From: Bdellovibrionales bacterium
GTDB taxonomy: Bacteria > Bdellovibrionota > Bdellovibrionia > Bdellovibrionales > CAYMLA01
DNA length: 64,000 bases
Direction of reading: 5' to 3'
Assembly: GCA_965217115.1 (NCBI GenBank)
Contig: OZ244239.1
Coordinates: forward strand, 640,001 to 704,000
Under the pieces are notes generated by a model that saw only the letters and a program-made list of their open reading frames with translations, was not told where the DNA came from and ran no database searches. This document shows, piece by piece, positions 752-48,903 of this stretch (position 1 is the stretch's first letter; the number at the start of each line of letters is the position of its first letter). Position numbers and translations under genes: made by a program.

Positions 752-934
752 CTGCTGACACGCCCCCTTCATCCCATTTCAGCCTTCTCCTAAGCGCCTA
801 TAAGAAAATAATAGCCTACTCAAATACTGTATTGTAGATTTCTAGCTGCAAGAACCTCTTCTGCTGTAAGTATGATAAGAGAGGAAGCTAGCTAACATCA
901 GTTAAATTTATTCTTATAAAAGGAAAATCATCAA

Positions 935-2362
935 ATGATCCCTGTGATTCTATCAGGTGGAAGCGGAACCAGGCTGTGGCCTGTGTCACGGACCAATTAT
1001 CCTAAACAATTCTGCCAACTCTTTCCTGAACCTCTGATGATTCAAACCCTTAAAAGAGTTGCCTCCTTTGGACCTGCTACTGTTATCACCACCGAAGATC
1101 TCAAAGTGTTAACTGAAAAAACTCTTAAGAGCCCCACTCTCTCTGACACTGCTTGTATCTACGAACCTTTTGGCCAAAATACAGCCCCTGCCATAGCTCT
1201 TGTCTGCCAAATTCTTAGCAGACAAGGTAAAAAATCAGAAGCCGTGGGGGTTTTTCCAGCCGATCAACTCATAGAAAACAACTCTGTCTTTCAACAAGCC
1301 ATACAGCTCAGTGAACAATACGCTCAAAAAAATCAAGTTGTCACACTCGGCATCAAACCCACCCACCCTGCCACTGGCTATGGTTATATCGAAATCAAAA
1401 ATGAATCCAGCAGTAACACGACTTCTGCAGAAGACTTTGTGGAGATATCTATTCATAAAGAAAAACCTCTCAAGGCCTTCCCTATCGCTAATTTTCACGA
1501 AAAACCCGATTCAACAACTGCACAAGCCTACCTAAATAAGGAAACTTTTTTCTGGAATGCTGGTATTTTTATTTTTAAAGTCCAAACTATGATCGATCTT
1601 TTAACGAAACACGCTCCTAAGCTCTGGGCAACTATCTCACAAATTAACTCTGATCTTAGTAATATCAAAGAAATTTATAACTCTGTCGAAAGCATCAGTA
1701 TTGATCACGCTCTTATAGAGAAACTCTCCCCTGAACAACTCACCTGTATTCCAACTGATATGGGTTGGAATGATATTGGCTCCTGGGATGCCATGTCTGA
1801 TATACCCGCTAAAATAAAATCCTCTCAAACAATCCAAATTAACTCTAAAAACAATTATCTCTTCTCTGAAAAAAACAAGACCTATGCCCTTAATAACGTT
1901 TCCGAACTAATCGTTGTCGATACTAACGACGCTCTGCTTATTACTCGCAAGGGGTGCTCTCAAGAGATTAGAGAGGTTGTCAAAAAATTAAATGCCGAGG
2001 AAAATCCGCGAGTAAAAGATTTTCCCTCTGAACAAAAGCCATGGGGCCAGTATGAAATTTTAAAAGATTCAACTAAATTCAAAACTAAAGCAATCACCAT
2101 TGACCCCAAAAGTCAGATTTCCTATCAATCCCATAAACAACGGGAAGAACACTGGATCATTGTCTCAGGCTCTGGAGAAGTTGTTCTTAACGGTGAGACA
2201 ATCTCTGTTAAAAAAGGCAGTTACATCCATATTCCTCAGGAAAGCAAACATCGCATACGTAATACAGAGAACATCCCTCTTGAATTTATTGAAGTCCAAA
2301 TGGGGGAATATTTTGGTGAAGACGATATCATTCGTTATGATGACGACTACAATAGAACCTAA
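935..2362 (+). CDS. manC: Mannose-1-phosphate guanylyltransferase / mannose-6-phosphate isomerase
   Basis: ILSGGSGTRLWPVSR..YPKQF, EP.GQNTAPAI, TGYGYI, WNAGIF, W.DIGSW, and a C-terminal cupin (KPWG, SYQSH..REEHW, IEVQ.G.Y.GEDDI.R). Confidence 0.95.
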   Translation: MIPVILSGGSGTRLWPVSRTNYPKQFCQLFPEPLMIQTLKRVASFGPATVITTEDLKVLTEKTLKSPTLSDTACIYEPFGQNTAPAIALVCQILSRQGKKSEAVGVFPADQLIENNSVFQQAIQLSEQYAQKNQVVTLGIKPTHPATGYGYIEIKNESSSNTTSAEDFVEISIHKEKPLKAFPIANFHEKPDSTTAQAYLNKETFFWNAGIFIFKVQTMIDLLTKHAPKLWATISQINSDLSNIKEIYNSVESISIDHALIEKLSPEQLTCIPTDMGWNDIGSWDAMSDIPAKIKSSQTIQINSKNNYLFSEKNKTYALNNVSELIVVDTNDALLITRKGCSQEIREVVKKLNAEENPRVKDFPSEQKPWGQYEILKDSTKFKTKAITIDPKSQISYQSHKQREEHWIIVSGSGEVVLNGETISVKKGSYIHIPQESKHRIRNTENIPLEFIEVQMGEYFGEDDIIRYDDDYNRT

Positions 2363-2394
2363 TATCATCATACAGCGATAAGGAATCTTTCTCT

Positions 2395-2922
2395 ATGAGC
2401 CTCGTACTTAAACAAATTTTTTCCTTTCTGAAGCTTCTCAATTCAGAAACAGGAACAACACAAATCGCCCTCGGACTATCCCTTGGAATCATCCTAGGTT
2501 TTGCTCCAACTCTTTCTCTACAAACTCTCTTCGTTTTTGGTCTTAGTTTTGTTTTCCGTATTCAATTAGGAGCTGTCTTTCTCTCAACATTTGTTTTTAA
2601 ATTTTTAGCCTATCTCGCCGATCCTCTCTGTCATGAAATTGGCCGCCTTGCCCTTGAAAATACCTCAATGCAACCTCTCTTCACAACACTCTATAATATG
2701 CCCGTAGTTCCCTTAAGTCAGTTTAATAACACCATCGTTATGGGATCTGCCATTCTCTCTATTCTTCTCTCTATTCCCATGGTTTTTATCTTTCAAAAAC
2801 TCATTCAAAAATATCGACAAAACATACTCGAACACTTTAAAAACAGCCGCTTTTACAAAATCCTTAAAACCACTTCATTTTACCGATGGTATCATAAGTA
2901 CAACGAACTCTATGGTTCATAA
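2395..2922 (+). CDS. TIGR03546-like (DUF2062) membrane protein
   Basis: LNSE...QIALG...G...G..P and FNNTIVMG motifs; paired with a TIGR03545-like gene. Confidence 0.8.
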   Translation: MSLVLKQIFSFLKLLNSETGTTQIALGLSLGIILGFAPTLSLQTLFVFGLSFVFRIQLGAVFLSTFVFKFLAYLADPLCHEIGRLALENTSMQPLFTTLYNMPVVPLSQFNNTIVMGSAILSILLSIPMVFIFQKLIQKYRQNILEHFKNSRFYKILKTTSFYRWYHKYNELYGS

Positions 2923-37399: not shown

Positions 37400-37675
37400 T
37401 TAATTTTGCCCGCGGCGTTTTAGCTCTTGCTCGTAGTACTTTTGATACATAATTTCCCATTCAGGAGAGTCTTCAACGACCGATCTCTGGAGAGACCGTA
37501 TCATCTTTGTTACCTTGGCATCCAACTCTTCATGGAGACGAACAAAGTCAATCACTCCCGCCTTCACAGCATTTAAGGCAGCCCTATCGTCTGTATAATC
37601 TGCTAAATCATCGTGATAAATTCCATCAGTGATTAAGTGGGCCAAGTGTGATTGACGGTCTTCACTGATAATCAC
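37400..37675 (-). CDS. DUF507-like protein
   Basis: MIISEDR..HLAHLI..., S.EWEIMY.KYYE.EL.RRG. Confidence 0.75.
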   Translation of the reverse strand: MIISEDRQSHLAHLITDGIYHDDLADYTDDRAALNAVKAGVIDFVRLHEELDAKVTKMIRSLQRSVVEDSPEWEIMYQKYYEQELKRRGQN

Positions 37676-37953
37676 AGCACAAACCCCTGTTGCTCAGCCA
37701 ATTTTTTCTTCAACATACCAAACATTTTATAACGTTGAAATTCCCCACCGTGATCTTGTTCCAATTGATCCAACATCCGGTCTACCTCTCTATCAAGAGT
37801 CTGTTCATCTTGTATGTTTTTCTCAATCACAGAAGAGACCTTCGTCGCCACAGCGTTTTCTCCCGCTTTTAGATCAATAGGAGATTGAGTCTCTCTTAGG
37901 CGCTTCATAATTAACTTCACTAATGTATCAATTTGTCTCTTTTTTAATCTCAT
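37672..37953 (-). CDS. DUF507-like protein
   Basis: MRL...QI..., E..LDREV..ML, KMF.MLKKKLA...GFVL; tandem with the previous gene. Confidence 0.75.
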   Translation of the reverse strand: MRLKKRQIDTLVKLIMKRLRETQSPIDLKAGENAVATKVSSVIEKNIQDEQTLDREVDRMLDQLEQDHGGEFQRYKMFGMLKKKLAEQQGFVL

Positions 37954-37994
37954 ACTTTTGACTAAATGACTCTCCTTCAATAAAGTCAAGGAAC

Positions 37995-40289
37995 ATGAAG
38001 CGAATATTAAAATTATCTCTTACTCTTATCTTCCTACTCTTCACCATTTTTGGTTTGTGGGTTTTTCGCCTTGATCAAACAATCAAAAATAAAATTGATG
38101 GGAATCGCTTCCTACCTCCAACAGAATTTTATTCTTCATCCACTAAATTAACTCAAAAACAGACGGTTTTCCTTCATCAAATTGACGACACCTTTCATCA
38201 AGCACAGTTTCGCAAAAGGCCTCCCAACTCATCTCTCTTTCCTGGCGACTATAGTTTGTGGAGCCCAACACAATGTCAAAAAAACACCTATCTGAAAATC
38301 CCCCCTGAAACCAAGCACTGCCTCGCCTTCAGAGATTTTAATACTTCATCCCAACAAATTCAACTTCTTGTCCTAGAAGAAAACCACACTCAAGAACATT
38401 CTAAGAAAAAAAATGAACAAAAAATCGCCTCCATCTACCAAGGACCTCCGTTTAAAGAAATCAAGCAAACACTGCTTCCCCCTCTTCTCTTTGCGCAATA
38501 CATTGGCAACTCTCCCACACAAAGAAAAATTGTCTCCCTAGGAAGTATTCCCACCCATTGTAAAAATGCTTTATTAGCCATTGAAGACAGTCAGTTTTTA
38601 GAACACTCAGGAATAAGTCCTCTGGCTATTCTAAGAGCCTTTTGGAACTTAATCAAAAAGCAAAAAATTACCCAGGGTGGTAGCACCATCACTCAACAAT
38701 TAGTCAAAGTTTATTTTCTCAATAGCGAACGTACTTTTAAACGTAAAATTATTGAAGCCGTCATGGCTCTTATCTTAGAACATCGAATTAGCAAAGACGA
38801 TATTTTAGAGCTTTATACTAACTCTATATATATGGGACAACAGGGGGTTTTTCAAATTCGAGGCTTTGCCGCTGCCTCAGAATACTATTTCAATAAACCC
38901 ATAAACAAGATCAACCTCCCCCAGTGCGCACTACTTGCCGCCACACTCAACAGCCCTGGCCTCTTCAACCCATTCACTCAACCAGAGAACTCTCGCAATC
39001 GCCGTAATCATGTCCTCAAACGAATGGCTCAATTCAAAATGATCTCCTCTCAACAAAAAGATTCTGCCCAAAAAGCTTCCCTCCCACAGAAACCCTCATC
39101 TAATCTAAAGGACAATGCTTCTTATTATATCAACGCCGTTAGACAGAAACTAAAAAAACTTAATATTTCAATGAAAGATGGAGGTAGAATTTACACCTCT
39201 CTGGATCTCAACGCACAAAAAACTGCCCGACAAGCAATCAACAGGCAACTCAACCGTCTTGAAAAAAACCGCCCTCAACTGAAAAAATCCGGCCATTCTC
39301 TACAAGCTTCTTTGATCTCCGTTGACACCGCCACGGGACATATCAATGCCTTAGTTGGAGGACGCAACTACAAAAAATCTCATTTCAATCGTGTTCTTGA
39401 ATCCAAGAGACAAATTGGTTCTTTAATGAAACCCTTTGTTTATTTAACTGCCCTAGAATCTTTAGATGAAAATGGCAACCCTATCACTCCGCTCTATCAA
39501 ATAAACGACTCTATCTTTACCCACTCCTATGAAGGACAAAAATGGACTCCCCATAACTACAATAAGAAATATCTCGGCCCTATTCCCCTCTACTTTGCTC
39601 TAAAAAACTCTCTGAATGTTCCCACCGCTAAAATTGGTTTACAAATCGGCCTCGAAGCTATTATCGACACTGCCAAACGCCTTAAAATTAGTTCCAGTCT
39701 AAAACCCGTTCCATCTCTCACTCTCGGCGCTTTTGAAGTCTCTACCTGGGAATTAGCACGGGCCTACACAGCGATCGCCCGAATGGGAAATCTCATTGAT
39801 ATTTCTCTTATACAAAAAATTGAATCCCTTAAAGGTGATACTCTTTACCTTAATTCTCCCTCGATAGAACAGGTTGTCTCCCCTAGTGTCGCAGCTGTCC
39901 TCATTGGCATACTTAAAGAAACCTTGCGCACAGGGACCGCTCGTTCCATCGGCAAGTGGTACGGCTTTAACCGTATCGCTGCTGGTAAAACTGGCACAAC
40001 GAGTGATCATCGCGATGCCTGGTTTTCAGGTTTCACACCGAGAAATCTCACCATTGTTTGGGTTGGTTTTGACGACAATCGCTCTCACAAACTGACTGGA
40101 GCCTCCGGTGCTATTCCCATCTGGGCTGATTATATGAGAAACACAACTCTACAATATCAAGACGAAGATTTTAACTGGCCAGAGAGTGTCACCCCCCATT
40201 TCTACTCCCGTGAAAACCTACAAAGATGGCCCCTCCCAGAACTGCAGTGGCCTGATTTTCAAGGAATTGAACTTATTATTAAAAAATAA
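37995..40289 (+). CDS. mrcB: Class A penicillin-binding protein (PBP1b-like)
   Basis: AIED..F..H.G, QGGSTITQQLVK, RK..E; transpeptidase motifs SLMK, SLN, KTGT. Confidence 0.9.
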   Translation: MKRILKLSLTLIFLLFTIFGLWVFRLDQTIKNKIDGNRFLPPTEFYSSSTKLTQKQTVFLHQIDDTFHQAQFRKRPPNSSLFPGDYSLWSPTQCQKNTYLKIPPETKHCLAFRDFNTSSQQIQLLVLEENHTQEHSKKKNEQKIASIYQGPPFKEIKQTLLPPLLFAQYIGNSPTQRKIVSLGSIPTHCKNALLAIEDSQFLEHSGISPLAILRAFWNLIKKQKITQGGSTITQQLVKVYFLNSERTFKRKIIEAVMALILEHRISKDDILELYTNSIYMGQQGVFQIRGFAAASEYYFNKPINKINLPQCALLAATLNSPGLFNPFTQPENSRNRRNHVLKRMAQFKMISSQQKDSAQKASLPQKPSSNLKDNASYYINAVRQKLKKLNISMKDGGRIYTSLDLNAQKTARQAINRQLNRLEKNRPQLKKSGHSLQASLISVDTATGHINALVGGRNYKKSHFNRVLESKRQIGSLMKPFVYLTALESLDENGNPITPLYQINDSIFTHSYEGQKWTPHNYNKKYLGPIPLYFALKNSLNVPTAKIGLQIGLEAIIDTAKRLKISSSLKPVPSLTLGAFEVSTWELARAYTAIARMGNLIDISLIQKIESLKGDTLYLNSPSIEQVVSPSVAAVLIGILKETLRTGTARSIGKWYGFNRIAAGKTGTTSDHRDAWFSGFTPRNLTIVWVGFDDNRSHKLTGASGAIPIWADYMRNTTLQYQDEDFNWPESVTPHFYSRENLQRWPLPELQWPDFQGIELIIKK

Positions 40290-40379
40290 ACAATCTTCAT
40301 TCAAAATGCCAAAATGACACCTGAATTCATGGAATAATTTTCTACGGAGCTTTTACTCAGCTTCTTTCTAGACCTTTTC

Positions 40380-40396
40380 TTGGCTCTCAAATTGCT
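40380..40396 (+). promoter_or_regulatory. sigma54 (RpoN) -24/-12 promoter upstream of the radical SAM gene
   Basis: TTGGCTCTCAAATTGCT equals TGGC-N7-TTGCW with exact GG-N10-GC spacing, ending 44 nt before the GTG start. Confidence 0.7.
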
Positions 40397-40440
40397 ATAA
40401 CTCTAGTGAACCTACCTTAAGTAGGGCAAAAGGACACCAA

Positions 40441-41757
40441 GTGAACTTAAGAACAAGGCAAAACATTGTCTCTATTAGAACCGAAGAAGGAGATTATGTT
40501 GGTTTTCACAGCGAAAACTTAGAGGTGGCCTCCCTAGACGAGAGCGCCTGGCTAGCTATGACCGAGTCCCACGGAGGAATTGAGAAACCTACCTCACAGG
40601 CCTCTTTAGAACTCAATGTATGGAATCAATCTCGCAATCCTGATTCCAAAAATATGCTCACCTCACAAAAAGTACGCAGCATTACCATCAATGTCACCCA
40701 ACTCTGTAACTTTAACTGCTCTTACTGTGCGGCTAATGGCGATGGCACCTATGGTGACCCTGTCGCGAAAATAGATATCGAACAAACTATTCCCCAGCTC
40801 AAGTATTTCCTCAATGCTCTCACCCATGGAGATCATTTCCACATTCATTTTCTCGGTGGAGAACCACTCCTTTACCCAAAGGCCATAGAAACTATCTCTA
40901 AGTACGCTCAGCTCTTTACTGCTGGGAAAGACATATCGCTAAAATTTTCAATCACGACCAATGGAACTTTACTCACAGAAAAAAACATCCAACTTCTCAC
41001 TAAACTCAATTGCCACGTGCAAATCAGTCTTGATGGGCCTCCTGAAATCAATGATAAACAAAGACACAGTAAGAAATCACCCTTCAACACATCCAGTATT
41101 GTTCAAGGACTTAAAAGATTACAAAAAGAGGCCGCTCAACTCGGCAGTATCGGTCTTAGTGCTGTCTTCAATGAAAACAACATGAACGTGGTTGAATGCT
41201 ACGAGTTTTTAGATAAATTCGATACTGATTGGATAGAGCTGACCTTTTCTTTCACCGATAAGTCCCCACTACTTTCTCAACAGTATGCTGAGCAGATGCA
41301 GAAAGTCGCAAGCTTAGCCTATAAGAAAAATGGCCTCGATGGGTTAAAAAAAATTAAAGCCTTCAATAATATTTTAAATAATATCGACCAGCGAACTCGT
41401 ATCAGAAACTACTGTGGAGCAGGTAAAGACTTCCTCATGATAGATGCTCGTAATCAAATCTACTCATGCCCTTGGGATGTGGGGACCGTTTCGGAAAAAA
41501 TTGGAGATTTAGACAAAATTGACCAGAGAAAGCGTAGCACCTATAAAAAAGACCTCGTGGACAAAAAATCTTGTCAAACCTGCTGGGCACGCTTTCTTTG
41601 TGGTGGAGGCTGTATGTTTACCCACAAAATGGCCACTGGAAATAAGAAAAAAGTGGATAAAGATTTCTGTGACCGCACAAGAAGCTTGATTGCCACAGCA
41701 ATTATATACTATGAAAGAGAAGGGAGAAAAAATGATGAAACATATCAAAATAATTAA
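40441..41757 (+). CDS. Radical SAM/SPASM peptide maturase (ranthipeptide CteB/PapB/QhpD-like)
   Basis: CNFNCSYC, GGEPLL, TTNGTLL, SLDGP; 7-Cys SPASM domain (CGAG...SCP...CQTCWARFLCGGGC...FC); about 75-aa N-terminal extension that may be an RRE. Confidence 0.92.
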   Translation: MNLRTRQNIVSIRTEEGDYVGFHSENLEVASLDESAWLAMTESHGGIEKPTSQASLELNVWNQSRNPDSKNMLTSQKVRSITINVTQLCNFNCSYCAANGDGTYGDPVAKIDIEQTIPQLKYFLNALTHGDHFHIHFLGGEPLLYPKAIETISKYAQLFTAGKDISLKFSITTNGTLLTEKNIQLLTKLNCHVQISLDGPPEINDKQRHSKKSPFNTSSIVQGLKRLQKEAAQLGSIGLSAVFNENNMNVVECYEFLDKFDTDWIELTFSFTDKSPLLSQQYAEQMQKVASLAYKKNGLDGLKKIKAFNNILNNIDQRTRIRNYCGAGKDFLMIDARNQIYSCPWDVGTVSEKIGDLDKIDQRKRSTYKKDLVDKKSCQTCWARFLCGGGCMFTHKMATGNKKKVDKDFCDRTRSLIATAIIYYEREGRKNDETYQNN

Positions 41758-41824
41758 AAACACAGGAAAAGGCACTAAAAAGCCCTCAGGAATCCAATGT
41801 ATTCCTCTCGGAGATCTTGACTAA
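41732..41824 (+). CDS. Putative RiPP precursor, 30 aa: MMKHIKIIKNTGKGTKKPSGIQCIPLGDLD
   Basis: Not in the ORF track. GGGAG at 41722-41726, ATG at 41732 (or 41735), TAA at 41822-41824. Overlaps the rSAM 3' end by 26 nt. SCIFF-like MKHIKI leader and a single Cys. Confidence 0.8.
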   Translation: MMKHIKIIKNTGKGTKKPSGIQCIPLGDLD

Positions 41825-41833
41825 TCCCTGAAC

Positions 41834-41863
41834 GTAGCACACTGCAACGATGTTGCTGTGTAC
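41834..41863 (+). other. Stem-loop directly 3' of the precursor ORF (no U tract)
   Basis: GTA(G)CACA(CT)GCAAC-GAT-GTTGC-TGTG-TAC. Confidence 0.55.
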
Positions 41864-41897
41864 AATTCTCAATATTTCGACTACATATCTAAGAGAC

Positions 41898-43727
41898 ATG
41901 AAATCTCTCGCTCTGAATCGTATTCTAAGACTCGCCTTTGCTTTATCCATTGCTGCGCTCGTTAATGAAATTAATTTAGATTATATTGAATCCTACATAT
42001 ACGATCTTCGTGTACGTTTATCTCCAGCTCCACAAGTGTCTGGGCATGTTTCCACTGTCTCTATCTCTCCATCCACCGTTCAATTCTTCCAAGGCGTCCC
42101 CTCTATGGGACATCACGTTCAAGCACTCAAACAGTTACTAAAAGCCAATCCTCGATCTGTAACTTATCTTACTAAACCAGATCAAATTTTTGGAACTCCT
42201 AAAGAAATAGCTGAATTCGCCAAGCTCGCTAAAAAAATTCCTTTTTACGTTCTTGCCAATCATCTTTCTATGAAGGGAGAAGATAACAAATTCTCCATGC
42301 CCAAGCCTCTAAATAAACTCACAGTCTTTTCTGGTCCTAAAACAGCTGACACCACTCTTTTTGCTAAGGATGGGGTCACACGAAGAGCTCTATACTCTTA
42401 CCAAAATCAACCTTTATTACAGGTCCATCTCGCCCAATCTTATAACACCCATATTAAAGACCCTGGAAAAGTTCGAGGACTATGGAGTTTTCGTGACTCA
42501 AACCAAGTTTATATTCACTACGCCCCAAAAGGCTCCTTCATTCAAATTAAATTTGAAGACCTCGTTAAAGGAGAATTTGATCCAAAAAACATTAATGACA
42601 AAATCATTCTCATAGGAACTGATTTAGGAACAACTATCAAAAACTATGCTTCGAGCCCCTACTCAAGAGCTATTGAACATGGCCTTCCTACGCTTGAACT
42701 CAACGCTAACATGATTGACACTTTCATCCGTAACTCTGCTCCCATTCAATCACCTAAGTGGCTCAATATTCTACTTACTTTTATTACTTCTCTCATCACC
42801 GTCTATGTGGTTCTTTCCATCCACCCTCTAAATGGACTTTTGATTATTGTTGGTATCTTAGGTGTGTTCTTTCTTACGGCCTATTTATCTTATTGGCCTT
42901 TTGGAATATGGCTTAAAATATCCCACCCTATTGCCACTATCTTTATGTGTTATTACTTTTTTATTCCCTATCGACTTATTAAAGAAAATCGCCGCAGTTG
43001 GGAGTACTACCAAAAAAATAAATTACTCACTAAAGTTGAGGAGTTAAAAGATAATTTCATTAGTATGATGTCCCACGATCTTAAAACTCCCCTGGCGCGA
43101 ATCCAAGGAATGGCTGATGTCATAAGAACTGACCAAACTGTCTCTCTATCCGAACAGCAAAATCAAGCTGTTGAAACCATCCAAAGCTCATCATTGGAGT
43201 TAACAGATTTCATTGAATCCATTCTCAATTTTAGCCGTATTGAAAGCCATGGTGTCGAACTGCAATTTAAGTCACAAGATGTTAATCAGCTCATCAAAGA
43301 AAGTATTAGAAAGTTAGATTTCAAAGCCAAATCGAAGAATATCGAACTCATCAGCGAACTTGAACCTCTTTTTAGCTTGAAGATGGACCCCTATTTAATT
43401 CGCCAGATTCTTACCAATCTCATAGAGAATTCCATTAAATATAGTCCTGAAGGGACTAAAATTCTGATTAATAGTGATGAACAAGACGACTTCATTGTTG
43501 TTCAAATTTCTGACCAAGGCCAAGGGATTTCTAAAAATGATCTCGAAAATATTTTTATGAAGTTTTATCGTTGCAAAGAGGCAAAAACTTCAGCCATCAA
43601 GGGGTCAGGGTTGGGCCTTTACCTCTCTCAATACTTTGCCCATTTACATAAAGGCAAGATCACAGTGGAAAGTGATCTCAATATGGGCTCCACTTTCAAT
43701 CTCTACATCCCCTACAATAAAAATTGA
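41898..43727 (+). CDS. CHASE2-domain sensor histidine kinase
   Basis: N-terminal TM segment; CHASE2-like motifs (YDLR.R, DGVTRR, KIILIG, SP, E..AN); three TM segments; SHDLKTPL; N box NLIENSIKY, D.GQG, GSGLGL. Confidence 0.9.
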   Translation: MKSLALNRILRLAFALSIAALVNEINLDYIESYIYDLRVRLSPAPQVSGHVSTVSISPSTVQFFQGVPSMGHHVQALKQLLKANPRSVTYLTKPDQIFGTPKEIAEFAKLAKKIPFYVLANHLSMKGEDNKFSMPKPLNKLTVFSGPKTADTTLFAKDGVTRRALYSYQNQPLLQVHLAQSYNTHIKDPGKVRGLWSFRDSNQVYIHYAPKGSFIQIKFEDLVKGEFDPKNINDKIILIGTDLGTTIKNYASSPYSRAIEHGLPTLELNANMIDTFIRNSAPIQSPKWLNILLTFITSLITVYVVLSIHPLNGLLIIVGILGVFFLTAYLSYWPFGIWLKISHPIATIFMCYYFFIPYRLIKENRRSWEYYQKNKLLTKVEELKDNFISMMSHDLKTPLARIQGMADVIRTDQTVSLSEQQNQAVETIQSSSLELTDFIESILNFSRIESHGVELQFKSQDVNQLIKESIRKLDFKAKSKNIELISELEPLFSLKMDPYLIRQILTNLIENSIKYSPEGTKILINSDEQDDFIVVQISDQGQGISKNDLENIFMKFYRCKEAKTSAIKGSGLGLYLSQYFAHLHKGKITVESDLNMGSTFNLYIPYNKN

Positions 43728-43857
43728 CATTTTTCGTCTGTATTTTTTTCACACCATCCATAAATTACATAACAAGCATTTTTTTCCCAAAAACAGTCAA
43801 AAAACACTTATTATGTGAACAAGAGATATATTTGTTTTTTGCAAAGGAAATATCATT

Positions 43858-45378
43858 ATGAACCATAAGCTAAAAGTTCTTGTAGTCGATGATGACCAAG
43901 GCCTGCGGCTGTCTATCAAGAACACACTCATAAATACAGAGAGATTTGACGTCGACGAAGCCTTCGACGGTATCAACGCTCTAGAAAAAATCGCCGAAAA
44001 CAATTACTCTCTTATTCTACTCGATGTCGATATGCCCAGACTCAATGGTCTACAAACACTAAAGAAAATCAAAGAACAAGACCCCGGAATCACCGTTATT
44101 ATTATGACGGCCCATGCAACAATCAATGATGCTGTCACAGCCGTGAAAAAAGGGGCCTATAATTATCTTTCCAAACCTGTCAGTGGCAGTGAACTCATCG
44201 AAAACATAGATAATGCCCTTGCTGCTTACAATATTATCTCCAGCGTAGCTCGCTCCGCCCCTGTTCTTGTGGAAGAAGGACGTAAAATAGTGGGCAATAC
44301 AGCACAGATGCAGAAAGTCTTTAATATCATCAATCGTTTATCAAAAGTTGACACCCCAGTGCTTATCCGTGGAGCCTCTGGGACGGGAAAAGAATTAATT
44401 GCTCGCGCCATTCACATGAACTCTGATAGAAAGAATGAAAAATTTGTCGCTATCAATTGCTCCGCTATCCCTGAGAATCTTTTTGAATCAGAACTCTTCG
44501 GCCATGAAAAGGGCTCTTTCACAGGAGCTGAGCAAAGAAAAATAGGTAAATTCCAATTCGCCGAGGGCGGCACTCTTTTTCTCGATGAAGTTGGCGATAT
44601 GCCTGGACTCATGCAAGTTAAATTATTACGTGTTCTACAAGAAAAAATATTCACTCCTGTAGGCGCCAACAGAGAACTTGATTCCAATGTCCGTATTATT
44701 GCTGCCACCAACCGCCCTCTAGAGAAAATGATACAAGAAGGGACCTACAGAGAAGATCTCTTTTATCGTCTTAACGTAATGCCTATTTTTCTCCCATCTC
44801 TTAAAGAACGGGTCAATGATATCGACTCAATGGTGAATCACTTTATTAAAAAGTTCAATCACACCCACCAAAAATCCATAACTAGCGTCACTCCCGATGC
44901 TTTAGCTTGCATAAAAAAATATGACTGGCCTGGAAATATCCGTGAACTTGAAAACGTGATTGAACACGCTTTTATCATGGAGACCAACCAAGTCATTTCT
45001 GTCCTCTCACTTCCTGAGTCTTTACTCGCCTCCACAGGAGTTGACATAGACGCTCTCTGTGCGGCACAAAATAATGCCTATAATAAACTAGCTGAAAATA
45101 TGTCGATACGACAAAACGTAGCGGCCCATGAAGACAAAGAACCTGTGAATATCGATCCCACATCAGCGCCTAGTCCTGACAGCACTATCATTGAGATATC
45201 ATCTGATAACTTAGATTTTTCTGTGCAGAAAGAGTCCTTTGAAAAAGAATTTATCATTAAAGCCCTAAAAACATTTAAGGGCAGAATCAATCAAACGGCC
45301 CTACACGCCAATATTCCAAAGAAAACTCTATTGCGCAAAATCGAAAAATACGGGATCAACGCCAAAAAATATTTTTAA
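43858..45378 (+). CDS. NtrC-family sigma54-dependent response regulator (REC-AAA+-HTH)
   Basis: VVDDD, LLDVDMP, GASGTGKE, ESELFGHEKGSFTGA, FLDEVG, WPGNIREL, C-terminal Fis-type HTH. Confidence 0.96.
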   Translation: MNHKLKVLVVDDDQGLRLSIKNTLINTERFDVDEAFDGINALEKIAENNYSLILLDVDMPRLNGLQTLKKIKEQDPGITVIIMTAHATINDAVTAVKKGAYNYLSKPVSGSELIENIDNALAAYNIISSVARSAPVLVEEGRKIVGNTAQMQKVFNIINRLSKVDTPVLIRGASGTGKELIARAIHMNSDRKNEKFVAINCSAIPENLFESELFGHEKGSFTGAEQRKIGKFQFAEGGTLFLDEVGDMPGLMQVKLLRVLQEKIFTPVGANRELDSNVRIIAATNRPLEKMIQEGTYREDLFYRLNVMPIFLPSLKERVNDIDSMVNHFIKKFNHTHQKSITSVTPDALACIKKYDWPGNIRELENVIEHAFIMETNQVISVLSLPESLLASTGVDIDALCAAQNNAYNKLAENMSIRQNVAAHEDKEPVNIDPTSAPSPDSTIIEISSDNLDFSVQKESFEKEFIIKALKTFKGRINQTALHANIPKKTLLRKIEKYGINAKKYF

Positions 45379-45531
45379 TAGACTCGCTTTTTAAAGAGTG
45401 ACTCAGCACCAAAAATAAGGACCCATCAAAATTGTCAATGGAAAGTTAAATTTTTCCGCGGCTCGTAAAATTTTCTAGTTTTCATTTTCTTATTGAAGTT
45501 AAAAGTAAGTGCCTGTAGTTTGCAAAACTCA

Positions 45532-45981
45532 ATGGCTGTATCTAATCTACCTCCTCAGGCTTATACCAAAGACACTCTGACAAAGGCTTTCGCCTGGTTG
45601 CAGACTCAAACAAAGGAAATCAAGGACATAGCCACTTCTCCCGAGATTTTAGTTGGTCTCTTCCACAGGGATAAACGTCGCGAAGACTTCTCTGCCCCAG
45701 CAAACTCACAAGAGTTCAAACTAGAGCTGAAGTCCCTTTCAGGAGAAATGCAGCCATTTATTAAAAAACCTCGAAAAACTGAAGAAAGTCCTCAGGCTGT
45801 CACTGCTCAGAAGGCATCAACCCAGTCTTCATTAAACCAATCTAGTTTTCTATCACAATTAGATCCTGAAACTGAAAATCTTATCAATGAAGTCACCCAA
45901 AACCTCAATCTCAGTTCTCCCAAAGAAGCCCTTCGTATGCTCATCATCCTAGGCTATAAACAAATCAAGCCTGTACTCTAA
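45532..45981 (+). CDS. Hypothetical protein with a C-terminal ribbon-helix-like segment
   Basis: ORF between the regulator and ileS; PQAYTKDTL.KAF.WL and LNLSS..EALRMLI.LG; function unknown. Confidence 0.65.
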   Translation: MAVSNLPPQAYTKDTLTKAFAWLQTQTKEIKDIATSPEILVGLFHRDKRREDFSAPANSQEFKLELKSLSGEMQPFIKKPRKTEESPQAVTAQKASTQSSLNQSSFLSQLDPETENLINEVTQNLNLSSPKEALRMLIILGYKQIKPVL

Positions 45982-46095
45982 AAGCAATTCTTTAAAAACA
46001 CAGGTTGCCGTAGGTTTAGAAAAAACGCTAGAATAAGCGGACTTGAAAAATTAAGAACCCCTATAATCTCACAGATTTTAAGAGGATAGAAGAAT

Positions 46096-48903
46096 ATGGG
46101 AGAGACTCCTGATTACAAAAGCTCCATCCATTTACCTAAAACTAGTTTTCCCATGAAAGCTGGGCTTGCAACTAAAGAGCCTGAACAGCTCAGAAAGTGG
46201 CAGGAGAATAAAATTTACAACAAGATGGCCTATCGCAACAAAGGAAAAAAACATTTTACCCTTCCCGATGGACCTCCCTATGCCAATGGTGACATTCATA
46301 TGGGCCACGTTCTCAATAAGGTTCTTAAGGATATGGTCATCAAATATCGCAATATGGCAGGTTACTGCGCTCCCTTTATTCCTGTCTGGGACACTCACGG
46401 TCTGCCCATTGAACACGCCGTCACAAAAAAACTCGGCTCCAAACGCCAGAATATGACTAATAAAGAAATTCGTGACCTCTGCCGCAAGGAAGCCATGAAA
46501 TGGGTCGACAAACAACAGGAGCAATTTCAACGCCTAGGTATCATGGCCGATTGGGACAACAAAAACCTTACCATGCAACCTTCCTACGAAGCAGAAGAGG
46601 TGCGCCAGCTAGCTAAAGCATTTAAAAATGAGGTTCTCTACAAAGGAGAAAAACCCGTTTATTGGTGCTGGGCCCTACAGACAGCCCTCTCTGATGCTGA
46701 AGTCGAATACCAGCAGCACACAAGCCCCTCAATCTACGTTAAATTTCCCATCACTGAAAAACTAGAAAAATTAGACTCCCCTAGTAAGCCTGTATCCTTT
46801 GTTATTTGGACTACAACTCCATGGACCATTCCTGCCAACATGGCCATCTGTCTGCACAGAGATTTTGATTATGAACTTTTTGAAAACTCTGATGAATACC
46901 TTCTCATTGCCAAAAACCTCAAAGAAGCTGTCGAAAAGGACACTGAGAGATCTCTCATCTCCACAGGTAAAATCTTTAAGGGTCACCAACTCGAAAATTT
47001 AACGGTCAACCACCCCTTTATAGAAGGACGTCAGCCCCTCGTTATTCTAGGAGATCACGTTACTTTAGAGACTGGAACAGGCTGCGTACACACAGCTCCC
47101 GCCCACGGACAAGATGACTTCTTTGTCGCAAAAAAATATGACCTTCTCCCCATCAATTACATCGAAGCTAACGGAACTTTCTCTAATGAAGTTCCAAGTG
47201 AGATTTCTGACCTGAGCGGACAGAACATATTTAAGGCGAACCCCACCATTATTGATAAGCTCTCCAAAAGTAAACATCTCCTTGCTGTTAAAAATATCAC
47301 CCACAGTTATCCCCATTGCTGGCGCTCTAAAACTCCTTTAATTTTTCGCACAACTCCACAATGGTTTATTGGTATGGACATAGAGAAGAATAGTATTCGA
47401 AAAAAAGCCAATGCCATTATTAATTCCATCGATTTTTTCCCTGAATGGGGAAAGCAGCGATTCAGCGCCATGATAGCTAACCGTCCTGATTGGTGCATTA
47501 GTCGTCAACGATTTTGGGGGGTTCCCATCCCCATCTTTTATTGCAATGCCACAGAAGAAGCGCTTCTTGATTACGATGTTATGATGAAAATTGCCGACTG
47601 TATGGAGAAGAATGGTGGCCTTGAAGCCTACTGGGACACTCCCATCGAAGAATTTCTCACAGATGACATTATCTCCAAATACGCTCAAAAAAGTGACTCT
47701 CCTGAAAAGTTTGGAACAGAAGGCTTTAGCCGTAGCAGAGATATTCTCGATGTATGGTTTGATAGCGGTGTTCTTCACAGCGCGGTAAAAACTCCAAATT
47801 CTGATGATATGCAATTTCCTGCCGACGTGTATCTTGAGGGAACCGATCAGCATCGTGGTTGGTTCAACACCAGCCTGATCTCTGCTCTAGCTGCAACAGG
47901 AGAGGCTCCCTATAAAGCTCTTATCACCCACGGTTTTGTTGTTGATAAAGATGGTAAAAAAATGAGCAAGAGCCTAGGCAACACAGTCTCCCCTAAAGAA
48001 CTTATTAATAGCAATGGTGCTGAAATTTTACGATTTTGGACTTCCTATGAAGACTATTCTAGAGATCTCACATGGGGTGATGAAGATCATAAACGTGTCA
48101 TGGACACTTATCGCAAACTCCGCAACACCATGCGTTTTTTATTAGGTAATTTAGATGATTTTGATTTTAAAAATGATCACATTCCCTATTCACAGATACT
48201 TCCCTTAGACCAATGGGCTTTAGGACGCTTAAATCTTCTCAACGAAAAAATGACGAGTGCCTTTGAGAGTTATTCTTTCTATAAAACCTATCACGCTCTG
48301 AATAGTTTCTTCACCGTAGATATGTCATCTACTTATTTAGATATTATCAAGGATCGTCTTTACACTTGGAAGAGAGACGGCCTAGAGAGACGCTCATCCC
48401 AAACCGTGATTTATCATATTATCCATAATACCTGTGGGTTAATGGCTCCAGTTCTCTCGTTTCTTGCCGAGGAAGTTTATTCTCACTTAAAAGACGGAAA
48501 TGCCGAAAGTATCTTTCTCACCGACTATCCAAAAACACAAGATAAATGGGTCAACGCTTCTGTAGACAAGGACTTTGTAACAATTCTCCAAGTACGAAGC
48601 GACGTGTCTAAAAATCTTGAATCTTTACGCACTGATAAAACCATCGGCTCCAGTTTAGACGCACAAATAATTCTCACTGTTCCTAAATCAACATTTGATA
48701 TTTTAAAAAAATACGAAAAATCTCTCATGGAGCTTTTTATTGTTTCGCAAGTCACTCTAAAGGAAGGGAAGGAGTTAAATATTTCAGCTTCTCTAGCTGA
48801 AGGTCTTAAGTGCGTGCGTTGCTGGCATATACACACAGAAACAGGCAAGAATTCAAGTTACCCAGACGTTTGTCCTAAGTGTGTTACGGCTTTGAGTACC
48901 TGA
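46096..48903 (+). CDS. ileS: Isoleucine--tRNA ligase (type 1)
   Basis: DGPPYANG.IHMGH, WCISRQR.WG, KMSKS, C-terminal CVRC..CPKC. Confidence 0.98.
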   Translation: MGETPDYKSSIHLPKTSFPMKAGLATKEPEQLRKWQENKIYNKMAYRNKGKKHFTLPDGPPYANGDIHMGHVLNKVLKDMVIKYRNMAGYCAPFIPVWDTHGLPIEHAVTKKLGSKRQNMTNKEIRDLCRKEAMKWVDKQQEQFQRLGIMADWDNKNLTMQPSYEAEEVRQLAKAFKNEVLYKGEKPVYWCWALQTALSDAEVEYQQHTSPSIYVKFPITEKLEKLDSPSKPVSFVIWTTTPWTIPANMAICLHRDFDYELFENSDEYLLIAKNLKEAVEKDTERSLISTGKIFKGHQLENLTVNHPFIEGRQPLVILGDHVTLETGTGCVHTAPAHGQDDFFVAKKYDLLPINYIEANGTFSNEVPSEISDLSGQNIFKANPTIIDKLSKSKHLLAVKNITHSYPHCWRSKTPLIFRTTPQWFIGMDIEKNSIRKKANAIINSIDFFPEWGKQRFSAMIANRPDWCISRQRFWGVPIPIFYCNATEEALLDYDVMMKIADCMEKNGGLEAYWDTPIEEFLTDDIISKYAQKSDSPEKFGTEGFSRSRDILDVWFDSGVLHSAVKTPNSDDMQFPADVYLEGTDQHRGWFNTSLISALAATGEAPYKALITHGFVVDKDGKKMSKSLGNTVSPKELINSNGAEILRFWTSYEDYSRDLTWGDEDHKRVMDTYRKLRNTMRFLLGNLDDFDFKNDHIPYSQILPLDQWALGRLNLLNEKMTSAFESYSFYKTYHALNSFFTVDMSSTYLDIIKDRLYTWKRDGLERRSSQTVIYHIIHNTCGLMAPVLSFLAEEVYSHLKDGNAESIFLTDYPKTQDKWVNASVDKDFVTILQVRSDVSKNLESLRTDKTIGSSLDAQIILTVPKSTFDILKKYEKSLMELFIVSQVTLKEGKELNISASLAEGLKCVRCWHIHTETGKNSSYPDVCPKCVTALST

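Follow-up and report, generated by a model that had tools for sequence, protein, structure and literature searches.

A conserved one-cysteine peptide gene coupled to a CteB-like radical SAM/SPASM enzyme, within a putative sigma-54 operon of Bdellovibrionales

Introduction

Peptides in which radical S-adenosylmethionine (SAM) enzymes have formed thioethers are mainly known from Firmicutes, and their precursors carry several cysteines. The present study concerns two genes of a Bdellovibrionales bacterium (GTDB lineage Bdellovibrionota; Bdellovibrionia; Bdellovibrionales; CAYMLA01), located in a stretch of 64,000 nucleotides which is referred to here as the window (GenBank assembly GCA_965217115.1, contig OZ244239.1, positions 640,001 to 704,000 of the forward strand). 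The first gene encodes a radical SAM enzyme with a SPASM domain and the second, a short open reading frame (ORF) which overlaps the 3' end of the first, encodes a peptide with a single cysteine, MMKHIKIIKNTGKGTKKPSGIQCIPLGDLD.

The closest described systems are the SCIFF, freyrasin and QhpC precursors with their maturases CteB, PapB and QhpD, the streptococcal NxxcA/NxxcB pair and the sulfatase-modifying enzyme anSME. The leader of CteA binds CteB by extending the sheet of the RRE, the recognition element of peptides that are ribosomally synthesised and modified post-translationally (RiPPs) (PMC6231123, PMC8326336). Auxiliary cluster I (Aux I) of CteB has an open iron which binds a cysteine of the substrate, while the clusters of anSME are fully ligated (PMC6231123). 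Six Cys-to-Asp bridges are present in freyrasin (PMC8326336), while NxxcA contains a single radical-SAM thioether from Cys23 to the C-beta of Asn20, the acceptor thus lying upstream of the cysteine (PMC8326336).

Results

Conservation of the precursor gene

The small ORF of the window was first described in a model-generated reading of the sequence (the initial annotation), which reported 30 codons, a GGGAG ribosome-binding site and a 26-nt overlap with the enzyme gene (41732-41757); all three were confirmed from the ORF list and the sequence (Table 1). The same reading proposed that small ORFs be looked for beside homologues of the enzyme. Sixty related genomes were searched, giving 18 strong orthologues (E 1e-93 to 1e-130, 37-46% identity), and a scan with one genome per species yielded 190 stretches encoding a relative of the enzyme, of which the best 80 were used. 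The resulting set consists of 99 loci, some of them from the same genomes reached twice, and counts of peptides are hence given by distinct sequence. The enzyme ORF is complete in 95 of the 99 loci and cut in L064, L081, L102 and L104. A homologous small ORF was found in all 93 loci with both a complete enzyme ORF and sufficient downstream DNA, from about -50 to +220 nt relative to the enzyme stop codon, so that every examinable orthologue has a counterpart. The contig ends after the leader in two loci (L009 and L088), where the precursor is cut, and four ORFs (those of L073, L076 and L087 and the second copy of L042) were recognised by reading of the frames rather than by the automatic finder. 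The 95 peptides obtained represent 90 distinct sequences of 26 to 78 residues, and nearly all of their ORFs are preceded by a Shine-Dalgarno-like sequence.

Substitution patterns were assessed in 12 non-overlapping pairs, the members of each having the same length and at least 75% DNA identity. The proportions of synonymous (pS) and non-synonymous (pN) differences in the precursor frame were 0.435 and 0.067 respectively, giving a pN/pS of 0.153 compared with 1.74 and 3.65 in the other two frames, and the precursor frame is therefore under purifying selection. Two loci carry tandem precursor genes: in L042 these lie at about +20 and +151 after the enzyme stop codon, with cores CVPVGIR and CAPLGAS, and in L096 at +17 and +135, with cores CIPIG and CIPSGLPNSSSN.

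It could be argued that the ORF arose by chance, or is a remnant of translational coupling, and that the enzyme acts on another substrate. Its absence from gene calls is in keeping with this, only one of eight exact precursor sequences looked up being present in a collection of approximately 15 billion proteins (as an unnamed entry), as is the fact that no family model matches the precursor: NCBIfam models gave zero matching families for 69 precursor peptides at E <=10. Set against this, a counterpart occurs at every locus examined, almost always behind a Shine-Dalgarno-like sequence, the leader and a C-x-P motif are conserved while linker length varies, the pN/pS ratio is low and the gene has been duplicated in tandem in two loci. 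A chance origin is thus scarcely credible; the small ORF is a real, hidden and conserved one-cysteine peptide gene coupled to the radical SAM/SPASM enzyme, and gene callers mostly miss it. A search of RNA data for the locus of B. bacteriovorus (L079:5850-7500) turned up only two soil runs, with 5-7% of words.

Leader and core of the peptide family

The precursors share a leader of the form xHIKK[VI]KP. The alignment of 69 precursors gives a leader consensus of KHIKKVKP, near-invariance of H4, K7, C23 and P25, and a linker of variable length. All 90 distinct precursors contain cysteine, and all but one contain exactly one; the peptide of L092 is the sole precursor with two (...GCIGKNHCPEID). 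Proline occupies position +2 from the cysteine in 86/90 distinct precursors, and position +1 or +2 in 90/90, and is the only residue retained alongside the cysteine across the family. The neighbouring positions show preferences, namely Gly at -3 (63/90) and -1 (42/90), Ile (54/90) or Val (11/90) at +1, Val, Ser or Thr at +3 (68/90), and Gly (43/90), Arg (17/90) or Lys (9/90) at +4. The tail following the cysteine comprises 3 to 12 residues, and exactly 4 in 35/90, the commonest tail being CIPVR at the C-terminus. Asp or Glu follows the cysteine in only 41/90; when the region from -4 to the C-terminus is considered an acidic residue is present in 75/90 and none in 15/90. No aromatic residue occurs within the cores of the family.

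The single cysteine described for the window's peptide (C23) therefore holds across the family, together with a co-conserved proline which the initial annotation had not noted. Its proposed KK-x-x-G linker was not conserved in the alignment. The likeness which it drew between this leader and those of QhpC and of SCIFF precursors, the latter beginning MKHIK, was not confirmed; the peptides matched no NCBIfam peptide model, a profile of the 69 gave no match to PDB chains at E <=10, and a full-text literature query for the string MKHIK returned unrelated papers only. A lipoprotein reading of the string GLAC was ruled out by the missing hydrophobic signal sequence and by a Leu at the wrong position.

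The radical SAM/SPASM enzyme

The GTG start of the enzyme agrees with the starts of its homologues, and Pfam matches were limited to Radical_SAM (E 1.4e-16) and Fer4_12. The CxxxCxxC motif, seven-cysteine SPASM domain and N-terminal extension of about 75 residues reported previously were each recovered from the translation and from orthologue alignments. C325, C343, C378, C381, C387, C391 and C410 are invariant in alignments of 14 and of 118 orthologues, and the seven-cysteine SPASM motif, as given in PMC6231123, is matched with the exception of Asn338 in place of the motif Gly.

The highest-scoring NCBIfam model was PapB (NF047865; 185.6 bits, cut-off 340), matched along the whole profile over residues 77-404. 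It was followed by the nif11-peptide maturase (160.4 bits), QhpD (TIGR03906; 144.3, cut-off 453), the SCIFF maturase (TIGR03974; 124.5, cut-off 425), CcpM (116.1) and anSME (TIGR03942; 91.8, cut-off 349.45); cyclophane-forming and other maturases were also among the matches. In a family-profile sequence search the closest PDB entry was CteB (5wgg; E 3.5e-42, aligned from residue 65), followed by TigE, ChlB and anSME. An AlphaFold2 model built from 118 sequences (pLDDT 91.2) gave the same first relative: CteB ranked first in Foldseek (E 5e-23, TM 0.80-0.84), with ChlB, TigE and anSME at TM of approximately 0.66. With VIA-align, residues 6..428 of the model were superimposed on residues 1..450 of CteB (5wgg_A; Z 36.9, root-mean-square deviation 3.2, 403 residues aligned), while ChlB (Z 32.9) and anSME (Z 31-32) matched only from residue 75-77; TigE (8vpo) also aligned, from residue 5. 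At the first Aux I position the alignments show a single cysteine (C325, within NYCGAGK) where CteB has CGSG and anSME has two ligands. The enzyme is thus a radical SAM/SPASM enzyme of the CteB/PapB/QhpD group, and its closest solved relative is CteB. The public names of the orthologues are generic ('radical SAM protein'), apart from one 'heme biosynthesis protein' and one 'SCIFF peptide maturase'. One enzyme match (G204:C1:3274934-3276199) lies within an open frame of 1127 aa, either because it is fused to the upstream gene or because a stop codon is missing.

N-terminal domain and leader docking

The N-terminal 75 residues are conserved among orthologues, with H23, A30 and W61 invariant. The domain is in the position of the RRE of CteB, since CteB aligns from residue 6 of the model while ChlB and anSME align only from residues 75-77. 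When modelled in isolation (pLDDT 84.1) and compared with 48,161 chains, its best match was residues 2..87 of CteB, at only Z 5.0 (root-mean-square deviation 3.4, 69 residues aligned); RREs of lasso-peptide B1 proteins scored Z 3.1-3.6, tied with winged-helix DNA-binding domains of the OmpR/PhoB type (Z 3-4). Foldseek returned nothing for the isolated domain at E <=0.001, the best hit having E 0.15 and the top three being lasso B1 RREs. At the sequence level the N-terminal domains of 54 members matched neither PqqD nor any other Pfam family at E <=10, and PDB chains gave no meaningful match. The position of the domain in the full-length superposition on CteB thus agrees with the RRE suggested in the initial annotation, but its RRE-like fold is only putative and lacks a sequence-level signal in Pfam or the PDB.

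The complex of enzyme and precursor was predicted from two alignments together with three 4Fe-4S clusters and SAM. The complex score was 0.90 in three runs, against 0.53 for the best of 3 controls, and the runs shared at least 74% of contacts, with a partner pLDDT of at least 58. A score of 0.90 was reached by 116/157 solved complexes and 2/215 mismatched pairs, counts which hold only roughly here because own alignments were used and small molecules were included. In the model peptide residues 4-8 (H4-I8) pair with the nearly invariant NLEVA of strand 28-32 in the enzyme; contacts with the leader involve enzyme residues 21, 28-33, 35-36, 39 and 53-61 (helices 35-39 and 53-61), while peptide residues 19-23 contact 268, 271, 307-318, 324-326, 391 and 393 on the SPASM side. 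The modelling, which had been suggested by the initial annotation, thus supports a docking in which the leader would add as a beta-strand to the N-terminal domain and the core around C23 would reach the SPASM side.

Operon context

The features of the locus are collected in Table 1.

Table 1. Positions of the enzyme gene, the precursor gene and associated features in the window
Feature	Position	Strand	Details
Radical SAM/SPASM peptide maturase, CteB-like	40441..41757	+	438 aa, GTG start; Pfam, NCBIfam, AlphaFold2 model
Predicted N-terminal peptide-binding (RRE-like) domain	40441..40665	+	Residues 1-75; four strands, then helices 34-43 and 53-63 (models)
CX3CX2C radical SAM cluster motif	40705..40728	+	C89, C93, C96; translation; invariant in 118 orthologues
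SPASM region	41413..41670	+	Seven invariant Cys: C325-X17-C343 ... C378-X2-C381-X5-C387-X3-C391 ... C410
Precursor peptide gene	41732..41824	+	30 aa, encodes MMKHIKIIKNTGKGTKKPSGIQCIPLGDLD; 29 aa if second ATG at 41735 is the start
Precursor regions	within 41732..41824	+	Leader K3-H-I-K-I-I-K9, then linker, core Q22-C23-I24-P25-L-G-D-L-D30
Shine-Dalgarno sequence of precursor gene	41722..41726	+	GGGAG, 5 nt before ATG
Conserved core C23-I24-P25 (C-x-P)	41798..41806	+	Family alignment anchored on Cys
Sigma-54 type -24/-12 box (predicted)	40381..40396	+	TGGCTCTCAAATTGCT; GG 40382-83, GC 40394-95 (GG-N10-GC); starts 60 nt before enzyme GTG
CHASE2 sensor histidine kinase	41850..43727	+	Longest ORF; start probably ATG 41898 by homology; Pfam CHASE2, HisKA, HATPase_c
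Sigma-54-dependent response regulator, NtrC type	43858..45378	+	Receiver, AAA+, HTH_8; ntrC model 431.9 bits, below cut-off 558.6
Conserved protein after regulator	45493..45981	+	162 aa; no Pfam/NCBIfam match; in 50/54 loci with at least 5.7 kb downstream

A sigma-54 type box, TGGCTCTCAAATTGCT, precedes the enzyme gene and is the only exact match to TGGC-N7-TTGCW in the window. As 0.96 such matches are expected, the box alone is not above chance and its support comes from conservation: 78/94 loci have the pattern [TC]GG[ACT]-N7-TTGC[AT] in the 260 nt that precede the enzyme gene, compared with 18/1345 downstream controls on the same strand and 44/3436 on the opposite strand (approximately 1.3%), and four more loci have AGGC-N7-TTGC instead. 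The CHASE2 kinase lies directly downstream of the precursor in 88/88 loci with at least 1 kb of downstream DNA, and the sigma-54 activator follows the kinase in 60/61 loci with at least 3.7 kb, the exception being L066, which has an 842-aa ORF in place of the regulator. In the window the 162-aa protein, which may belong to the module, is followed by IleRS, LspA and Lgt, and a PBP gene lies upstream of the enzyme. The initial annotation had not touched on the promoter, kinase or activator.

From this conserved arrangement it is inferred that the operon depends on sigma-54, and the enzyme and precursor are probably co-transcribed with the kinase and the activator. RpoN (217.8 bits) is present in the genome together with about nine full sigma-54 activators. 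Of these the adjacent one is the obvious candidate but, given their number, need not be the one that acts here. A scan of the region 40200-46200 for sigma-70 promoters gave 10 sites against 12.6 expected, and terminator-like sites numbered 9 against 4.6 expected, none being positioned after the precursor. The hairpin after the precursor stop codon (41815-41905; -11.7 kcal/mol) was not significant (z 0.18 relative to shuffled sequences).

Some further features of the upstream regions were recorded. An AT-rich inverted repeat, AGTA-N8-TACT, is present at -47 or -48 from the sigma-54 box in 12/78 distinct upstream regions, compared with 56/23,554 control windows, and could be a site for the activator or IHF. 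The loci concerned include L003, L004, L012, L041, L046, L047, L054 and L091, and the repeat is not evident upstream of the enzyme in the window. No exact 5-mer palindrome upstream of the -24 box was common to more than 4/82 loci. Further upstream, DUF507 appears as two overlapping ORFs on the minus strand (37400-37675, 91 aa; 37672-37989, 105 aa), which match profile positions 95-181 and 1-93 respectively and so represent a two-gene form of a one-protein family; both halves are found upstream of the PBP gene in 22/94 loci each.

Kinase loci without the enzyme-precursor pair

Strong matches to the kinase's CHASE2 portion (E 1e-44 to 1e-100) were obtained in many genomes of the order in which no orthologue of the enzyme was found. 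In 12 such loci (L111-L122, from genomes G003-G050) the kinase again follows the PBP gene, with neither the enzyme nor a leader-like ORF present; L118, for instance, reads DUF507, DUF507, PBP, kinase, which is the window's own gene order with the two genes left out. Upstream of the kinase a sigma-54 box was identified in 7/12 of these loci, in four of them within 26-45 nt of the kinase start. The kinase consequently does not need the peptide, and the peptide pair looks as if it had been either inserted into an older autoregulated two-component operon or lost from one. One of the 12 loci, L112 (G006), encodes a different radical SAM protein of 499 aa (...LSNTCNFKCS) upstream of the CHASE2 kinase and on the opposite strand (931-2430, minus strand of the oriented locus), in a genome without an orthologue of the enzyme studied here.

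Distribution

Among 301 genomes chosen evenly across the phylum, 42 contained an orthologue of the enzyme at E <=1e-60, and all of these belong to the order of the window genome. By family (coded), the orthologue was present in 35/36 genomes of f10, 5/18 of f5 and 1/1 of f12, and was not found in the other families sampled. The named loci belong to Bdellovibrio, Pseudobdellovibrio and relatives, with complete genomes from strains of B. bacteriovorus among them. The Bdellovibrio-type cassette, with the same neighbours, is also present in two metagenome bins (L066 and L080) whose labels, 'Streptomyces griseus' and 'Bacillota bacterium', are probably binning errors.

Literature on Bdellovibrio combined with ranthipeptides, CHASE2, radical SAM/SPASM precursors or sigma54 was searched and no description of the cassette was found, with the proviso that Grove 2017 or Hudson 2019 may mention it; the combination of ranthipeptide and Bdellovibrio returned surveys of biosynthetic gene clusters, in the available portions of which the cassette is not mentioned. 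As far as these searches show, the one-cysteine cassette is undescribed.

Discussion

The data are best accounted for by a two-gene RiPP-type module, in which a precursor transcribed from a sigma-54 promoter would be docked through its leader on a CteB-like maturase and would receive one thioether from its cysteine; a probability of about 0.6 is assigned to this reading as a whole. The most likely mechanism would combine leader docking with a single Cys-derived cross-link. By analogy with CteB, the thiolate of the single cysteine would bind the open iron of Aux I, a residue close by would lose hydrogen to the 5'-deoxyadenosyl radical, and a single intramolecular thioether would form with loss of 2 Da. 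The arguments for a thioether are that the best NCBIfam matches are the thioether-forming maturases PapB, QhpD, SCIFF and CcpM, that the enzyme has one cysteine at the position of CGSG in CteB, as opposed to the two Aux I ligands of anSME, and that Aux I of CteB leaves an iron open for a substrate cysteine while anSME has fully ligated clusters (PMC6231123). In the window's peptide the acceptor could be D28 or D30. The initial annotation had proposed a ring between the cysteine and one of these residues; such a ring can hold for the subtype to which the window belongs (CIPLGDLD, CIPVGD, CIPVSGD, CIPTGVD), but it cannot be the rule of the family, since the Bdellovibrio type ends in CIPVR, the commonest tail, and Asp or Glu follows the cysteine in fewer than half of the precursors. 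A bolder possibility would be that the invariant Cys-x-Pro marks an undescribed cross-link chemistry, with the proline or the C-terminal residue as acceptor.

Several points weigh against this reading. No curated thioether family, and indeed no NCBIfam model, has a cut-off which the enzyme reaches, and the thioether would be an extrapolation from its relatives. The acceptor rule of PapB and QhpD misfits the family, because so many precursors lack Asp or Glu after the cysteine (present in 41/90) and 15/90 have no acidic residue in the core at all. The C-x-P motif, with Arg at +4 in 17/90, resembles the formylglycine motif of sulfatases. The N-terminal domain has no sequence-level RRE signal and by itself reaches only Z 5.0, and the complex score may reflect memory, since the complex of CteB with the CteA leader is solved. 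Co-transcription and the use of sigma-54 are predictions from the DNA sequence, and Pfam annotation of the genes in the conserved block revealed no protease or exporter.

Two other fates of the cysteine were kept under consideration, oxidation without a thioether and modification elsewhere, because C-x-P(-x-R) has the form of the formylglycine motif. The target motif of anSME is C/S-x-P-x-R, and the same gene pair might act in a comparable way, the C-beta hydrogen of the cysteine being abstracted to give formylglycine, a thioaldehyde or another oxidised cysteine and no ring. C-x-P is present in 86/90 precursors, C-x-P-x-R in 17/90 and C-x-P-x-[RK] in 26/90; anSME is a structural relative (Z 31-32) whose NCBIfam model scores 91.8 bits, and anSME and ranthipeptide enzymes both target C-beta hydrogens (PMC8326336). 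This outcome is nonetheless improbable, and slightly more so than modification elsewhere: the window's peptide reads C-I-P-L-G without Arg and the family favours Gly at +4, profile scores and structure both place the enzyme closer to CteB, PapB and QhpD than to anSME, it has an N-terminal leader-binding domain which anSME lacks, and it has one cysteine where anSME has two additional Aux I ligands (alignment; PMC6231123). Alternatively, the cysteine may only anchor the core on Aux I while modification occurs elsewhere, as a C-C or C-N cross-link, an epimerisation or a hydroxylation at Ile/Val +1, Pro +2 or position +3. The cysteine bound to the cluster in the CteB crystal is not the one which forms the thioether (PMC6231123, PMC8326336), conservation at positions +1 to +3 equals that of any candidate acceptor, and SPASM enzymes perform many chemistries, cyclophane-forming and other maturases being among the matches of this enzyme. 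As the best-scoring relatives all make Cys thioethers, and the core offers no aromatic residue for a cyclophane, an anchoring role is likewise improbable and thioether formation is preferred.

A separate question, compatible with any of these chemistries, is whether the modified peptide is an exported, self-made signal which is sensed by the extracytoplasmic CHASE2 domain of the adjacent kinase and activates its own sigma-54 operon by way of the adjacent activator, in a loop resembling quorum sensing. NxxcA is under quorum-sensing control, and a 2020 study by Chen and colleagues reportedly connects ranthipeptides derived from SCIFF with quorum sensing in solventogenic clostridia. The invariant order of enzyme, peptide, kinase and regulator (kinase 88/88, regulator 60/61) and the conserved sigma-54 box before the operon would both suit such a loop. 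Against it stand the CHASE2 orthologues found behind the same PBP gene without an enzyme orthologue, several with their own sigma-54 box, together with a block that has no exporter, signal peptide or leader protease and a genome with about nine sigma-54 activators. Since the kinase-regulator pair and the sigma-54 box are also found where the peptide pair is missing, the simplest view is that the peptide is an output of the autoregulated two-component system; it may be just that and need not be the ligand of the kinase. A signalling loop is therefore considered unlikely. If it were true, the peptide would be the first defined peptide ligand for CHASE2 domains and a RiPP-based cell-cell signal in predatory Bdellovibrio, and lineages with the kinase only would sense something else or the peptide of a neighbour.

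The interest of the module lies in a minimal, one-cysteine version of a ranthipeptide-like pair which is fixed throughout a family of predatory bacteria, cultured strains of Bdellovibrio bacteriovorus among them, and whose precursor is mostly missed by gene callers while curated family libraries do not cover the system. It would offer the simplest possible substrate for studying how a CteB-like enzyme picks its acceptor, and its invariant place in a sigma-54/CHASE2 two-component operon provides a testable link between a RiPP and signalling. Since cultivation and genetic manipulation of Bdellovibrio are possible, both questions can be approached with ordinary experiments.

Comparison with known systems

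Among the described systems SCIFF/thermocellin (CteA and CteB of Clostridia) is the nearest. CteB is the best solved relative by sequence and by structure, and shares with the enzyme the three-part build of leader-binding, radical SAM and seven-cysteine SPASM domains as well as the single cysteine at the first Aux I position. The leader is modelled to dock by beta-strand addition, as described for CteA (PMC6231123, PMC8326336), and here too a short precursor lies beside its enzyme throughout a lineage with no obvious exporter. The peptides differ in having one cysteine rather than six in about 45 residues, a length of 26-78 aa with a variable linker, and a G-x-G-C-[IV]-P core; the maturase reaches 124.5 bits against a cut-off of 425 and no peptide model was matched. 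The host lineage is Bdellovibrionota instead of Clostridia, and the genes are fixed in an operon with sigma-54 and CHASE2 kinase elements.

PapB/freyrasin (NF047865) provides the best-scoring NCBIfam model, and PapB forms Cys thioethers; the score falls below the cut-off of 340, and a single cysteine followed by Asp or Glu in 41/90 precursors contrasts with a repeated C-X3-D/E core. QhpD is likewise a radical SAM/SPASM enzyme, making Cys-Asp/Glu thioethers, and its model gives 144.3 bits, below the cut-off of 453. The substrate of QhpD is an enzyme subunit and not a 30-aa peptide, and no dehydrogenase genes were found near the enzyme, the neighbours being PBP, kinase, regulator and IleRS. NxxcB/NxxcA shows that ranthipeptides with one thioether exist (PMC8326336), and is set apart by leader, core (N-x-x-C as opposed to G-x-G-C-x-P) and regulation. 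The anSME/AtsB enzymes share the SPASM fold (Z 31-32), and the C-x-P(-x-R) core resembles the anSME target motif. They differ in having no N-terminal leader-binding domain (matches begin at residue 77), in acting on sulfatases and in a fully ligated Aux I (PMC6231123), and the enzyme scores 91.8 bits against the anSME cut-off of 349.45. Taken together, the enzyme-peptide pair looks like a one-cysteine relative of the SCIFF/ranthipeptide systems which stands outside every curated family.

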